From Escherichia coli (GTDB taxonomy: Bacteria; Pseudomonadota; Gammaproteobacteria; Enterobacterales; Enterobacteriaceae), in assembly GCF_041248615.1 (NCBI RefSeq), contig NZ_CP158426.1: a stretch of DNA of 64,000 nucleotides. The stretch is one strand, 5' to 3'. Under the pieces are notes generated by a model that searched no databases, was not told the DNA's origin, and was given only the letters and a program-made list of their open reading frames with translations. Both the position numbers and the translations under genes were made by a program. Shown here one piece after another: positions 54,408 to 60,472 of the stretch (position 1 is the stretch's first letter; each line of letters opens with the position of its first letter).

Positions 54408-55601
54408 ATGACAACATTACTTAACCCCTATTTTGGTGAGTTTGGCGGCATGTACGTGCCACAAATCCTGATGCCTGCTCTGCGCCAGCTGGAAGAAGCT
54501 TTTGTCAGCGCGCAAAAAGATCCTGAATTTCAGGCCCAGTTCAACGACCTGTTGAAAAACTATGCCGGGCGTCCAACCGCACTGACCAAATGCCAGAACA
54601 TTACGGCTGGGACGAACACTACGCTGTATCTTAAGCGCGAAGATTTACTGCACGGCGGCGCGCATAAAACTAACCAGGTGCTCGGTCAGGCTTTACTGGC
54701 GAAGCGGATGGGTAAAACCGAAATCATCGCCGAAACCGGTGCCGGTCAGCATGGCGTGGCGTCGGCCCTTGCCAGTGCCCTGCTCGGCCTGAAATGCCGT
54801 ATTTATATGGGTGCCAAAGACGTTGAACGCCAGTCGCCAAACGTTTTTCGTATGCGCTTAATGGGTGCGGAAGTGATCCCGGTACATAGCGGTTCCGCGA
54901 CGCTGAAAGATGCCTGTAACGAGGCGCTACGCGACTGGTCCGGCAGTTATGAAACCGCGCACTATATGCTGGGCACCGCAGCTGGCCCGCATCCTTACCC
55001 GACCATTGTGCGTGAGTTTCAGCGAATGATTGGCGAAGAAACGAAAGCGCAGATTCTGGAAAGAGAAGGTCGCCTGCCGGATGCGGTTATCGCTTGTGTT
55101 GGCGGCGGTTCAAATGCCATCGGCATGTTTGCTGATTTCATCAACGAAACCGACGTCGGCCTGATTGGTGTCGAACCAGGCGGTCACGGTATCGAAACTG
55201 GCGAGCACGGCGCACCGTTAAAACACGGTCGCGTGGGCATCTATTTCGGTATGAAAGCGCCGATGATGCAAACCGAAGACGGGCAGATTGAAGAATCTTA
55301 CTCCATCTCCGCCGGACTGGATTTCCCGTCTGTCGGCCCACAACACGCGTATCTTAACAGCACTGGACGCGCTGATTACGTGTCAATTACCGATGATGAA
55401 GCACTGGAAGCCTTCAAAACGCTGTGCCTGCACGAAGGGATCATCCCGGCGCTGGAATCCTCCCACGCCCTGGCCCATGCGCTGAAAATGATGCGCGAAA
55501 ACCCGGAAAAAGAGCAGCTACTGGTGGTTAACCTTTCCGGTCGCGGCGATAAAGACATCTTCACCGTTCACGATATTTTGAAAGCACGAGGGGAAATCTG
55601 A
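54408..55601 (+). CDS. trpB: tryptophan synthase beta subunit
   Basis: 397-aa ORF matching TrpB. Confidence 0.95.
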
Positions 55602-56407
55602 TGCAACGCTACGAATCTCTGTTTGCCCAGTTGAAGGAGCGCAAAGAAGGCGCATTCGTTCCTTTCGTCACCCTCGGTGATCCGGGCATTGAGCAGTCGC
55701 TGAAAATTATCGACACGCTAATTGAAGCCGGTGCTGACGCGCTGGAGTTAGGTATCCCCTTCTCCGACCCACTGGCGGATGGCCCGACGATTCAAAACGC
55801 CACACTGCGTGCCTTTGCGGCAGGTGTGACCCCGGCACAGTGCTTTGAGATGCTGGCACTGATTCGCCAGAAGCACCCGACCATTCCCATCGGCCTTTTG
55901 ATGTATGCCAACCTGGTGTTTAACAAAGGCATTGATGAGTTTTATGCCCAGTGCGAGAAAGTCGGCGTCGATTCGGTGCTGGTTGCCGATGTGCCAGTGG
56001 AAGAGTCCGCTCCCTTCCGCCAGGCCGCGTTGCGTCATAATGTCGCACCTATCTTTATTTGCCCGCCGAATGCCGACGATGATTTGCTGCGCCAGATAGC
56101 CTCCTACGGTCGTGGATACACCTATTTATTGTCACGTGCGGGCGTGACCGGCGCAGAAAACCGCGCCGCGTTACCCCTCAATCATCTGGTCACGAAGCTG
56201 AAAGAGTACAATGCTGCGCCTCCATTGCAGGGCTTTGGTATTTCCGCCCCGGATCAGGTAAAAGCAGCGATTGATGCAGGAGCTGCGGGCGCGATTTCTG
56301 GTTCGGCCATTGTTAAAATCATCGAGCAACATATTAATGAGCCAGAGAAAATGCTGGCGGCACTGAAAGCTTTTGTACAACCGATGAAAGCGGCGACGCG
56401 CAGTTAA
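55601..56407 (+). CDS. trpA: tryptophan synthase alpha subunit
   Basis: 268-aa ORF matching TrpA; start overlaps the trpB stop. Confidence 0.95.
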
Positions 56408-56413
56408 TCCCAC

Positions 56414-56440
56414 AGCCGCCAGTACCGCTGGCGGCATTTT
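56414..56440 (+). terminator. trp operon terminator (trp t)
   Basis: agccgccag-taccg-ctggcggc followed by atttt. Confidence 0.8.
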
Positions 56441-56787
56441 AACTTTCTTTAACGAAGCCGGAAAAATCCTAAATTCATTTTATATTTATCTTTTTACCGT
56501 TTCGCTTACCCCTGTCGAACGTCAACTTACGTTATTTTTCCGCCCAACAGTAATATAATCAAACAAATTAATCCCGCAACATAACACCAGTAAAATAAAT
56601 AATTTTCTCTAAGTCACTTATTCCTCAGGCAATTGTTAATATATCCAGAACGTTCCTCATAATATATTTTCCCACTTTCTTCTCGTTACGCTTAATTTGA
56701 CTAATTCTCATTAGCGACTAATTTTAATGAGTGTCGACACACAACACTCATATTAATCAAACAATGCAACGCAACGGGAGAAATAAC

Positions 56788-56967
56788 ATGGCCGAACATC
56801 GTGGTGGTTCAGGAAATTTCGCCGAAGACCGTGAGAAGGCATCCGACGCAGGCCGTAAAGGCGGTCAGCATAGCGGCGGTAATTTTAAAAATGATCCGCA
56901 ACGCGCATCTGAAGCGGGTAAAAAAGGCGGTCAACAAAGCGGTGGTAATAAATCAGGCAAATCCTGA
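56788..56967 (+). CDS. yciG: KGG-repeat general stress protein YciG
   Basis: 59-aa ORF from MAEHRGGSGNF; two KGG-type repeats; track ORF has an upstream extension. Confidence 0.8.
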   Translation: MAEHRGGSGNFAEDREKASDAGRKGGQHSGGNFKNDPQRASEAGKKGGQQSGGNKSGKS

Positions 56968-57052
56968 TTCACCGTTAATTATTAATATCAGCTGATAAAG
57001 ATAATTTCATCTGCGGGCCGTATGGCTCGCAGTGATTCCACTGGAGAAAAAT

Positions 57053-57553
57053 ATGAATATGAAGACCATTGAAGATGTATTTATTCACCTGCTTTCAGAT
57101 ACCTACAGCGCAGAAAAACAATTAACCCGTGCACTGGCAAAACTCGCTAGAGCAACATCAAACGAAAAATTAAGTCAGGCTTTTCATGCGCACCTCGAGG
57201 AAACTCATGGACAGATTGAACGAATTGATCAAGTTGTGGAATCTGAATCGAACCTGAAAATTAAGCGCATGAAATGTGTGGCAATGGAAGGTCTCATTGA
57301 AGAAGCTAATGAGGTTATCGAAAGCACCGAGAAAAACGAAGTGCGTGATGCCGCACTGATTGCCGCAGCGCAGAAAGTCGAGCACTATGAGATCGCCAGT
57401 TACGGGACATTAGCGACGCTGGCTGAACAATTAGGTTACCGTAAAGCAGCGAAGCTTCTGAAAGAAACTCTTGAAGAAGAAAAGGCCACCGACATCAAAC
57501 TGACTGATCTGGCACTTAATAACGTAAATAAGAAAGCCGAAAATAAAGCCTGA
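57053..57553 (+). CDS. yciF: ferritin-like stress protein YciF (DUF892)
   Basis: ORF matches YciF from MNMKTIEDVFIHLL (166 aa). Confidence 0.85.
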   Translation: MNMKTIEDVFIHLLSDTYSAEKQLTRALAKLARATSNEKLSQAFHAHLEETHGQIERIDQVVESESNLKIKRMKCVAMEGLIEEANEVIESTEKNEVRDAALIAAAQKVEHYEIASYGTLATLAEQLGYRKAAKLLKETLEEEKATDIKLTDLALNNVNKKAENKA

Positions 57554-57598
57554 AATATGAATTTTCACTTTTAGTCATTTTATAAAGAGGACATTTTC

Positions 57599-58105
57599 AT
57601 GAATCGTATTGAACATTATCATGACTGGTTACGTGACGCCCACGCAATGGAAAAGCAAGCCGAATCTATGCTTGAATCCATGGCCAGTCGTATAGATAAT
57701 TATCCTGAACTACGCGCTCGTATTGAACAACATCTTAGTGAAACCAAAAACCAGATTGTTCAACTGGAAACTATTCTTGATCGTAATGACATTTCACGTT
57801 CAGTCATTAAAGATTCCATGAGTAAAATGGCTGCGCTTGGGCAGTCAATCGGTGGTATATTCCCTTCTGATGAAATAGTCAAAGGCTCTATTAGCGGATA
57901 TGTCTTCGAGCAATTTGAAATCGCCTGTTACACCTCACTCTTAGCAGCAGCAAAAAATGCCGGTGATACAGCTTCAATTCCAACCATCGAAGCGATTTTA
58001 AATGAGGAAAAAGAAATGGCCGACTGGCTGATTCAGCATATTCCGCAAACAACTGAGAAATTTTTAATTCGCTCTGAAACTGATGGCGTAGAAGCGAAGA
58101 AATAA
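57599..58105 (+). CDS. yciE: ferritin-like stress protein YciE (DUF892)
   Basis: 168-aa ORF matching YciE; paralogous to the upstream yciF. Confidence 0.85.
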   Translation: MNRIEHYHDWLRDAHAMEKQAESMLESMASRIDNYPELRARIEQHLSETKNQIVQLETILDRNDISRSVIKDSMSKMAALGQSIGGIFPSDEIVKGSISGYVFEQFEIACYTSLLAAAKNAGDTASIPTIEAILNEEKEMADWLIQHIPQTTEKFLIRSETDGVEAKK

Positions 58106-58129
58106 TACCCTTTATACCATGTCCTTATT

Positions 58130-58156
58130 GACCCCGTATATTACGGGGTCGTTTTT
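58130..58156. terminator. terminator between the convergent yciE and ompW
   Basis: gaccccgta-tat-tacggggtc followed by gttttt. Confidence 0.6.
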
Positions 58157-58164
58157 GTGCGGAA

Positions 58165-58803
58165 TTAAAAACGATATCCTGCTGAGAACATAAACACCCA
58201 CGGATCGAGGCGTACGCTATCGTGTTGCTGTGCACCGCCCAGCTTATAATTGGCGGTGGTATCAATATCCATGTACCACACTGACATGTTAACCAACCAG
58301 TCACGGTTAATCAGATAATCAACCCCCACCTGCCCGGCAGCTCCCCAGGAATCTTTCAGACTGAGATCGGAAAGCCCCGCCTCTTTGCCATGATCGTTAA
58401 ATCCATTATCAAAGAAGGTGGTGTAGTTAATACCTGCCCCAACGTAAGGACGGAATTTGCTGCTGGCATCACCAAAATACCACTGCGCCATCAGTGTTGG
58501 CGGCAGATGATGAACGGTTGCAATATCGCCGGTCGCCCGGGTGCCGATTTTATGGCGGAACGGCGTCGCTGCCAGCAATTCCACACCAATGTTATCGGTC
58601 GCCATATAAGTAAACGTCAGGCCCAGTTGCGTGTTATTGGTCACGCTGAATCCACCCAGACTTCCTAACGTACCACCAGCACCTTCTGTTGGACGTACGG
58701 TTGCAGAACCTGCACGCATAAAAAATTCGCCTGCTTCATGCGCAAAGGCACTGCCAGAGAGAAGAGTTGTTACTGCCAAAGCCGCCACTGTTAACTTTTT
58801 CAT
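58165..58803 (-). CDS. ompW: outer membrane protein W
   Basis: 212-aa ORF with signal peptide and C-terminal aromatic residue; matches OmpW. Confidence 0.95.
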   Translation of the reverse strand: MKKLTVAALAVTTLLSGSAFAHEAGEFFMRAGSATVRPTEGAGGTLGSLGGFSVTNNTQLGLTFTYMATDNIGVELLAATPFRHKIGTRATGDIATVHHLPPTLMAQWYFGDASSKFRPYVGAGINYTTFFDNGFNDHGKEAGLSDLSLKDSWGAAGQVGVDYLINRDWLVNMSVWYMDIDTTANYKLGGAQQHDSVRLDPWVFMFSAGYRF

Positions 58804-59159
58804 ATCCGCTCCGTCGTTATGGTTATAAAAACGTGACGAATATACCTACATTGGAGTAACAAATGATCCTACATAGATCACATTACATATGATAATTCAC
58901 CCTTTATTGATCTGGATTAATTTAGAAGTTGCATTGAGAATCCTGGTTAACGTGATTTAAATCAATTTTTAAATATTTTCGCTACGCAAATATTAACTCG
59001 TTCGCCACTTGCCGCGGTTTGCCCACGCCTGAAGGCCAGCAATTACCTCCGCTTTACAAAGATATGCTTTTCCATACAAGACCTGATGCTGCCACCCGAG
59101 GCTTAACCAGGGTACAATTGCCCGCTAATTAACACCTGCATAAAACTCAAGGAGAGTGC

Positions 59160-59903
59160 ATGTCTATCACGGCGCAGTCCGTATACCGTGACACCGGAAA
59201 TTTCTTCCGTAATCAATTTATGACCATTCTGTTGGTATCGTTGCTATGTGCGTTTATCACAGTGGTGTTAGGGCATGTTTTCTCACCCAGTGATGCACAG
59301 CTTGCGCAGCTCAATGATGGCGTGCCCGTTAGCGGCAGTAGTGGGTTGTTCGACCTGGTTCAGAATATGTCACCGGAACAGCAACAAATTTTGCTGCAGG
59401 CTTCAGCGGCGTCCACTTTTTCAGGATTAATCGGTAACGCCATTCTCGCCGGAGGCGTAATATTAATTATCCAGCTGGTGTCTGCGGGTCAGAGAGTCAG
59501 TGCGCTGCGAGGTATTGGTGCCAGTGCGCCGATATTGCCAAAGTTATTTATTCTGATTTTTCTGACTACCCTTTTAGTACAGATTGGCATCATGCTGGTG
59601 GTCGTTCCGGGAATTATCATGGCTATTTTACTGGCCCTGGCACCGGTGATGTTGGTACAGGACAAAATGGGCGTTTTTGCCTCGATGCGTAGCAGTATGC
59701 GGCTGACTTGGGCGAATATGCGTCTGGTGGCACCCGCAGTACTGAGCTGGTTGCTGGCAAAAACACTGTTGCTGCTTTTTGCCTCTTCTTTTGCCGCATT
59801 AACCCCGGAAATTGGTGCCGTACTGGCGAACACCTTGAGCAACCTGATTTCAGCCGTACTGCTCATCTATCTGTTCCGCCTGTATATGTTGATTCGCCAA
59901 TAA
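59160..59903 (+). CDS. yciC: inner membrane protein YciC (UPF0259)
   Basis: 247-aa polytopic membrane ORF matching YciC. Confidence 0.85.
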
Positions 59904-59932
59904 CCTTAAGCATTTGATTACGGAATCGTAAA

Positions 59933-60472
59933 ATGAAGCAGTTTCTTGATTTTTTACCGCTGGTTGTCTTTTTCGCGTTTTACAAGATTTATGACATCTA
60001 TGCGGCTACTGCGGCGCTGATCGTCGCCACGGCGATTGTGCTTATATATAGCTGGGTTCGCTTTCGTAAGGTTGAGAAGATGGCCCTGATCACTTTTGTT
60101 CTGGTGGTCGTCTTCGGTGGCTTAACCCTGTTCTTCCACAATGATGAGTTTATTAAATGGAAGGTTACTGTCATTTATGCCCTGTTTGCAGGTGCCCTGT
60201 TAGTCAGCCAATGGGTGATGAAAAAGCCGCTAATTCAGCGGATGCTGGGTAAAGAACTCACGCTGCCGCAACCGGTATGGTCGAAGCTGAATCTGGCCTG
60301 GGCTGTTTTCTTTATCCTTTGCGGTCTGGCAAACATCTACATCGCATTCTGGCTGCCGCAAAATATTTGGGTCAACTTTAAAGTGTTTGGCCTGACCGCT
60401 CTTACCTTAATCTTCACATTGTTAAGCGGTATCTATATCTACCGCCACATGCCGCAGGAAGATAAATCCTAA
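59933..60472 (+). CDS. yciB: inner membrane protein YciB (intracellular septation protein family)
   Basis: 179-aa ORF matching YciB. Confidence 0.85.

Follow-up and report, generated by a model that had tools for sequence, protein, structure and literature searches.

The window, a 64,000-nucleotide stretch of Escherichia coli DNA, carries across positions 54408-60472 the order trpB-trpA-yciG-yciF-yciE, followed by ompW on the minus strand and then yciC-yciB, as read from its open reading frames and from BLAST. A gene for a KGG-repeat protein is followed, in the same direction, by two DUF892 genes; the spacers are short (85 nt between yciG and yciF, 45 nt between yciF and yciE), each of the three genes has its own Shine-Dalgarno sequence, terminators flank the set, and the same gene order is seen in five other genera. 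All three reading frames are intact, and the window shows no rearrangement, pseudogene or added cargo here. When 5,426 complete E. coli genomes were compared by BLAST, a 1,771-nt query over yciGFE was 100% identical to E. coli NRZ14408 and 95-99% identical in 4,715 further genomes, with a yciG/yciF/yciE annotation in every BLAST record listed; compared with the annotated genes of 4,715 complete genomes, the DNA identity is 97.5-100%. The record NZ_LT599825, also 100% identical in DNA, is annotated trpA-yciG-yciF-yciE-ompW, and the gene coordinates in Table 1 are the annotation transferred from it and from K-12. The locus can thus almost certainly be identified as the yciG-yciF-yciE operon of the E. 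coli chromosome, which normally lies here, between the trp operon and ompW. The identification as yciGFE in an earlier note, made from the letters of this DNA, is confirmed both by the identity to annotated copies and by the Pfam families, which are as stated there.

Table 1. Features at the yciGFE locus, in positions of the window
Feature	Position	Strand	Description
trp t intrinsic terminator	56415-56444	+	Hairpin GCCGCCAGTACCGCTGGCGGC then ATTTTAACTT; ends the trp operon
AT-rich, C-rich/G-poor spacer	56445-56696	+	252 nt, 32.5% GC; bulk of the supposed leader
Predicted yciG promoter	56697-56727	+	TTGACT-16-C-TAATTT-TAA, conserved in 8 loci
Predicted yciG 5'UTR	56731-56787	+	About 57 nt; Shine-Dalgarno GGGAG at 56776-56780
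yciG	56788-56967	+	59-aa glycine-rich hydrophilin with KGG repeats; coordinates as in NZ_LT599825 and K-12
KGG repeat unit 1	56839-56883	+	ASDAGRKGGQHSGGN, aa 18-32
KGG repeat unit 2	56905-56949	+	ASEAGKKGGQQSGGN, aa 40-54
yciG-yciF spacer hairpin	57011-57032	+	CTGCGGGCC-GTAT-GGCTCGCAG, -16.3 kcal/mol
yciF	57053-57553	+	166-aa DUF892 ferritin-like four-helix-bundle protein
yciE	57599-58105	+	168-aa DUF892 paralogue
Intrinsic terminator, operon end	58129-58157	+	10-bp stem then TTTTTGTG (terminator scan)
ompW	58165-58803	-	Convergent neighbour of yciGFE

Directly 3' of yciE lie a strong intrinsic terminator and then ompW; the terminator hairpin is common to yciGFE and the convergent ompW and is identical in K-12. 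The Mn catalase gene katN is absent, and the operon here is therefore of the katN-less type, which is the known K-12 state.

Both copies of the ASxAGxKGGQxSGGN repeat that had been read in YciG fit that motif exactly. At the DNA level they are 45-nt direct copies, 78% identical and spaced 66 nt (22 codons) apart, and the protein matches the Pfam KGG family (PF10685) in two stretches, scoring 64.8 bits (E 8e-18) where the cut-off is 20.4. Hydrophilins are defined in the literature by a glycine content above 6% together with high hydrophilicity. YciG has 14 glycines in 59 residues (23.7%), a GRAVY of -1.67 and just nine residues from the AVILMFWC set, a composition consistent with disorder; the Salmonella YciG orthologues have been reported to be intrinsically disordered in solution. 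Together with the paralogous YmdF and STM14_1829, YciG has been described as a sigma-S-dependent hydrophilin, likewise with reported disorder in solution; mutants of these proteins have phenotypes in acid, heat, motility and virulence.

Correctly placed, yciG starts at the ATG at 56788; a Shine-Dalgarno sequence, GGGAG, lies 8 nt before it. The GTG at 56731 is a mechanical reading-frame start only, from which a 78-aa product would be read. We regard it as very improbable that YciG is this longer protein, with the N-terminal stretch MSTHNTHINQTMQRNGRNN: although the frame is open from 56731 and the extension leaves the KGG match unchanged, the GTG has no Shine-Dalgarno sequence where the ATG has GGGAG, the 19 extra codons sit in sequence with non-triplet indels between genera, and RefSeq gives 59-62 aa in all loci retrieved. 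The GTG moreover coincides with the predicted transcription start described below. Of the extent 56731-58105 originally assigned to the cluster, then, the end is exact and the start is wrong, yciG beginning 57 nt further on at its ATG.

YciF and YciE each match the DUF892 profile (PF05974) over nearly its full length, YciF with an E value of 5e-52 (residues 5-162 on profile positions 1-158 of 159) and YciE with an E value of 6e-51 (residues 5-156 on positions 4-158 of 159), so that their description as adjacent DUF892 ferritin-like paralogues stands. Aligned with each other over 159 aa they are 24% identical (E 1e-6), and hence are old paralogues. Structures have been solved for both proteins (2GS4 and 4ERU for YciF, 3OGH for YciE). 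YciF of the window matches 2GS4 over residues 1-166 (E 2.5e-98) and YciE matches 3OGH (E 4e-107), and the four-helix bundle and di-metal site are found through this near-identity to the solved chains 2GS4 and 3OGH. A yciF start at the GTG that opens its reading frame, at 57032, was rejected, as the 166-aa product from the annotated start fits residues 1-166 of 2GS4. Shine-Dalgarno sequences precede both genes (GGAG, 7 nt upstream, for yciF; AGAGGA for yciE).

In Salmonella YciF, according to a preprint, the substitutions Q54A, E113Q and E143D abolish iron binding and ferroxidase activity. Q54, E113 and E143 are all present in YciF of the window and align with Q52, E107 and E137 of YciE; since both E. 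coli proteins keep the iron-site residues of the Salmonella protein, both are probably metal-binding. Two histidines of YciF are replaced in YciE (H52 by K50 and H111 by Q105), and the metal chemistry of YciE may for this reason differ from that of YciF. We know of no activity reported for YciE. Salmonella YciF itself has been found to form an oligomeric complex of ~110-120 kDa that takes up iron at a di-metal site and has ferroxidase activity, an activity reported for Salmonella YciF only (preprint). Its oxidation of Fe2+ is described as limiting iron-driven oxidative damage. The RefSeq name of the E. coli protein is 'YciE/YciF ferroxidase family protein'; no NCBIfam model matches YciG, YciF or YciE, so RefSeq must have assigned its names by rules of another kind.

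Upstream of yciG, positions 56441-56787 had been described as a long AT-rich leader. The region is indeed AT-rich (33.1% GC versus 49.9% for the window), but a promoter block lies within it and the word leader does not hold: the sequence points to trp termination, a silencing spacer, a promoter and a short UTR, and the segment is probably not a 347-nt leader. The trp t terminator was found by the terminator scan 8 nt past the trpA stop (56407), with a 9-bp stem of which seven pairs are GC and with a T tail, and its stem, CCGCCAG/CTGGCGG, is retained in genomes without yciGFE. In the spacer that follows, C outnumbers G by 60 to 23, a C excess that is one of the three largest among 3,984 intervals (256 nt each) of the 64-kb window. 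The spacer is unalignable between genera and takes up 12 of the 13 intergenic substitutions relative to K-12. Its composition fits a Rho-loading site for trp read-through, and in K-12 the Rho-dependent terminator trp t' sits in this region behind trp t. The AT-richness of the tract also fits the published silencing of yciG by H-NS/StpA. The spacer is thus probably both a regulatory, H-NS-bound region of yciG and the region of a Rho-dependent terminator of trp read-through.

The upstream sequences of eight loci, from Escherichia, Salmonella, Klebsiella, Enterobacter and Citrobacter, were aligned. The sole conserved block comprises AATTTGACT, which carries the predicted -35 element TTGACT (56697-56702), and, 16 nt on from this element, C-TAATTT-TAA, made up of a C at -13 (56718), the -10 element TAATTT (56719-56724) and TAA (56725-56727). 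The TTGA, CTA and TTA columns are invariant in all eight loci, and the flanks diverge. Sigma-S promoters are marked by a C at -13 and by TAA after the -10 element (KCTAYRCTTAA). The block matches this extended -10 form, and from its conservation and this consensus we infer a sigma-S-type promoter for yciG. The yciG promoter was reportedly mapped by Beraud et al. in 2010. The block would place the start of transcription near 56731, 7 nt downstream of the -10 element, and thereby give the 5'UTR its predicted length of ~57 nt. By the same conservation and consensus, the remaining ~250 nt are probably spacer, either untranscribed or traversed only by trp read-through.

Within the predicted 5'UTR lies the palindrome GTGTCGACAC (56732-56741), and the centroid fold contains a candidate 5'-terminal hairpin at 56727-56751, in a region with a fold z-score of -1.17 that is not significant alone. 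Other genera have a different inverted repeat, GATACG...CGTATC, where E. coli has this palindrome. We did not adopt the palindrome as a site for the GntR-type regulator McbR, whose ChIP-seq motif is of an AT-rich 'ATATAT' type.

Alternatively, all 347 nt of the AT-rich stretch could be a genuine 5' leader of yciG with post-transcriptional control elements in it; transcription would then come from a promoter close to the trp terminator or from TTAATA-16-CATAAT at 56636-56663. The latter matches sigma-70 elements at 9 of 12 positions, but this match carries no weight: the simple sigma-70 scan found 4 promoter-like sites where shuffled sequence leads one to expect 4.5, and is uninformative (the predicted promoter itself was not called by it), and we rejected the site as the yciG promoter since it is not conserved. 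The region is certainly AT-rich and long, and stress operons often have long leaders. Everything upstream of 56697 is nevertheless unalignable between genera where the TTGACT...CTAATTTTAA block can be aligned, and the strong C-rich/G-poor bias is that expected of a Rho-loading region. A search of 56300-58300 against Rfam gave chance-level matches only (E at least 2.3, far below the gathering scores), and thus no known RNA family to support a structured leader. We consider the long leader unlikely and retain the short 5'UTR behind a predicted sigma-S-type promoter.

The spacer between yciG and yciF is likewise unalignable, with the exception of a hairpin that is its only conserved block among five independently retrieved loci. 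The region around the hairpin has a fold z-score of -2.86, and the pairs that change across the five loci are C-G/U-G/U-A in one case and G-U/A-U in another. The window contains the hairpin pattern a single time, where zero occurrences are expected. In the genome collection the pattern CTGCGRGYC-N3-9-GRCTCGCAG proved a poor probe, with at least 120 loci matched; among the matches listed, only four are in a yciG-yciF context, and the others are unrelated, chance GC-rich palindromes, mostly of high-GC genomes. The hairpin sample accordingly consists of five unbiased loci and four found by pattern (biased) and is too small for a covariation test. In Salmonella, Klebsiella and both Citrobacter species the hairpin is followed by 5-7 T in 8 nt, a T-rich tail that makes it look like a terminator. 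E. coli and two Enterobacter loci have only 3 T among the first 8 nt of the tail, and the terminator scan of the window did not call the hairpin. Pantoea has a different hairpin with a T-run after yciG, in a spacer of 260 nt.

We read the hairpin as a putative partial terminator within the operon, or as a putative 3'-end stabiliser, either of which would favour yciG relative to yciFE. It would then set the ratio of yciG to yciFE mRNA by partial termination in the relatives that keep the U-tract, and in E. coli, where the U-tract is lost, would act mainly in 3'-end protection. In Salmonella, binding of CspE to yciF mRNA and stabilisation of this mRNA have been reported, and it is therefore conceivable that the element is modulated by a chaperone. 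A more elaborate proposal, which we hold only tentatively and think rather doubtful, is that the hairpin is a regulated attenuator: in Salmonella, Klebsiella and Citrobacter a partial intrinsic terminator would produce plenty of mRNA for yciG alone, an RNA chaperone such as CspE would be needed for read-through into yciFE, and loss of the U-tract in E. coli would have changed the yciG:yciFE expression ratio. The 3'-end supplements of Adams et al. 2021 mention neither yciG nor yciF. The hairpin provides a small lead on how the balance between a disordered protein and two ferritin-like proteins might be set.

Membership of the RpoS regulon, which the earlier note had expected, cannot be read from sequence and is supported by published data for both E. 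coli and Salmonella. In E. coli EDL933 the RpoS dependence of yciG, yciF and yciE is 205-, 405- and 38-fold, respectively, and Salmonella yciGFE is RpoS-dependent as well. The E. coli operon is listed as H-NS-controlled, silencing by H-NS/StpA has been reported, and yciG is strongly derepressed in Salmonella without H-NS. The yciG promoter is also bound by the GntR-family regulator McbR/YncC, described variously as an activator and as a repressor. According to the literature on these genes, then, sigma-S drives transcription of yciGFE in stationary phase and under stress, H-NS/StpA silences the AT-rich locus, and McbR/YncC acts at the yciG promoter.

The trpA and ompW flanks were found in 5,422 of the 5,426 genomes and yciGFE in 4,735, the cluster being absent from ~687 of the 5,422 flank-bearing genomes (~13%). 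The yciGFE-less genomes examined were of two kinds. In the first, trpA lies ~50 bp from a diverged ompW allele, with one hairpin common to both genes; in the second, an ompW-like gene is truncated by a prophage. The module, with or without katN, is also found on plasmid-filed records of Salmonella, Klebsiella, Enterobacter, Citrobacter and Pantoea, and EHEC is described as having a second, prophage-borne yciGFE copy with katN. Together with a GC content of 40% for the locus and 32.5% for its upstream region against 50-54% in the flanks, these absences, in which the site carries either a prophage or a diverged allele of ompW, and these additional copies are what would be expected if yciGFE had arrived recently as a mobile stress island and were not a core operon, its properties reflecting horizontal transfer. 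Several of the 'plasmid' records, however, carry chromosomal neighbours (narJ, ompW, yciC) and may be mis-filed chromosomal fragments, and the module lies next to ompW in Salmonella too, which points to long residence there and to its loss from some lineages of E. coli. The 2010 study by Beraud et al. reportedly noted already that the locus had been rearranged and probably transferred horizontally. We therefore judge the island reading to be a serious possibility that falls somewhat short of probable, and in any case to be the evolutionary background of the main explanation, not a competitor to it.

The main explanation is that the yciGFE locus of the window is an already known, ordinary stationary-phase stress operon in an intact, K-12-like copy. 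It is a textbook case of RpoS/H-NS control, structures have been solved, and ferroxidase activity has been published for the orthologue of YciF, so that it matters little in itself; the corrected yciG start, the predicted short 5'UTR and the reading of the spacer are useful for annotation or for the design of reporter fusions.

The operon agrees closely with yciGFE of K-12 (b1259-b1257), which has the same position, gene lengths, spacers and terminators. Alignment to K-12, the one check that the earlier note had named, yields near-identical products in the same layout: YciG is 100% identical, as is the yciG DNA, YciF is identical at 165 of 166 residues (I155L) and YciE at 166 of 168 (Q139E and N147H). 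With intact reading frames and 0, 1 and 2 residue differences, the judgement that nothing is anomalous here was correct. The 380-nt trpA-yciG intergenic region differs from that of K-12 by 13 substitutions, and the -35 element, the -10 element and the hairpin stem differ by none.

Among other KGG hydrophilins, YmdF and STM14_1829 are likewise small, Gly-rich and highly hydrophilic, with tandem KGG repeats and sigma-S dependence, and over its first 143 nt yciG is matched by ymdF DNA at ~80%. Within the window, YciG alone among KGG members is linked to DUF892 genes. To our knowledge, the molecular mechanism has not been established for any KGG-family member. The con-10/GsiB-type general stress proteins are kin of YciG as named in RefSeq annotation. 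DUF892 proteins differ from the classical ferritins in that they are not 24-mers.

The yciGFE-katN operon of Salmonella enterica, at ~75% DNA identity to the window, shares with it the gene order, the promoter core AATTTGACTAAT...CTAATTTTAAT, the palindrome GTGTCGACAC and the hairpin after yciG. Its upstream regulatory sequences differ from those of the window. Salmonella has katN, for a Mn-catalase, as a fourth gene before ompW where the E. coli window has none, and its hairpin is followed by TATTTTG, in contrast to the E. coli hairpin, which has no T-run.

Downstream of trp t, the intrinsic terminator closing the trp operon, the AT-rich spacer contains 60 C versus 23 G on the + strand, an excess that places it in the top 3 of 3,984 windows. 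This very strong excess of C over G is what a Rho-loading site acting on trp read-through would show, and it fits a leader of yciG less well; in K-12 the Rho-dependent terminator trp t' lies in this spacer. Where the yciG mRNA is predicted to begin, an inverted repeat is found in all compared genera except Salmonella, with sequences that differ: GAGTGT...ACACTC in E. coli and GATACG...CGTATC at the equivalent place in Klebsiella, Enterobacter and Citrobacter. The repeat may form a stem-loop that stabilises the 5' terminus. In both E. coli and Salmonella this 5' region contains the perfect palindrome GTGTCGACAC.

Features in and around yciGFE (L-numbers, retrieved comparison loci)
Feature	Coordinates	Remark
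AT-rich spacer downstream of trp t	56445-56700	C-over-G excess on + strand
Inverted repeat, predicted yciG mRNA 5' end	56727-56751	equivalents in L006, L007, L008, L021, L049, L112
yciG-yciF spacer hairpin	57011-57032	conserved across genera
YkgJ-family cysteine-cluster gene remnant, 90 nt	59043-59132	between ompW and yciC

The yciG-yciF spacer hairpin is kept in Salmonella, Klebsiella, Enterobacter and Citrobacter, genera between which the remainder of the spacer is unalignable, and displays one compensatory pair series (C-G / U-G / U-A). In most relatives a T-run follows the hairpin, making it terminator-like, whereas the E. coli hairpin lacks the T-run.

Relative to K-12, yciG (56788-56967) carries no substitutions in 180 nt, compared with 13 in 380 nt of the adjoining intergenic region (56408-56787) and 16 in 501 nt of yciF (57053-57553). 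The zero divergence of yciG may be due to chance, to exceptionally tight constraint or to a patch of recombination.

yciGFE is absent from ~687 of 5,422 complete E. coli genomes. Window positions 56408-58164 were compared with two loci lacking the genes, L003 (2708-2757) and L004 (9709-9900). In some such genomes trpA lies ~50 bp from a diverged ompW allele (85-93% identity), with one hairpin common to both genes; in others a prophage cuts an ompW-like gene.

Carriers of yciGFE filed as plasmids (L005-L009) were drawn from PLSDB. Several PLSDB records with yciGFE also bear chromosomal neighbours (narJ, ompW, yciC or cydAB-like genes), and some are non-mobilizable or megabase-sized; on these grounds, some may be mis-assigned chromosomal contigs, not true plasmid copies.

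The annotated E. coli genome that is 100% identical across the yciGFE region lists the YkgJ-family remnant as a pseudogene, whereas in the Salmonella locus (L005) an intact gene of 405 nt occupies the equivalent position.
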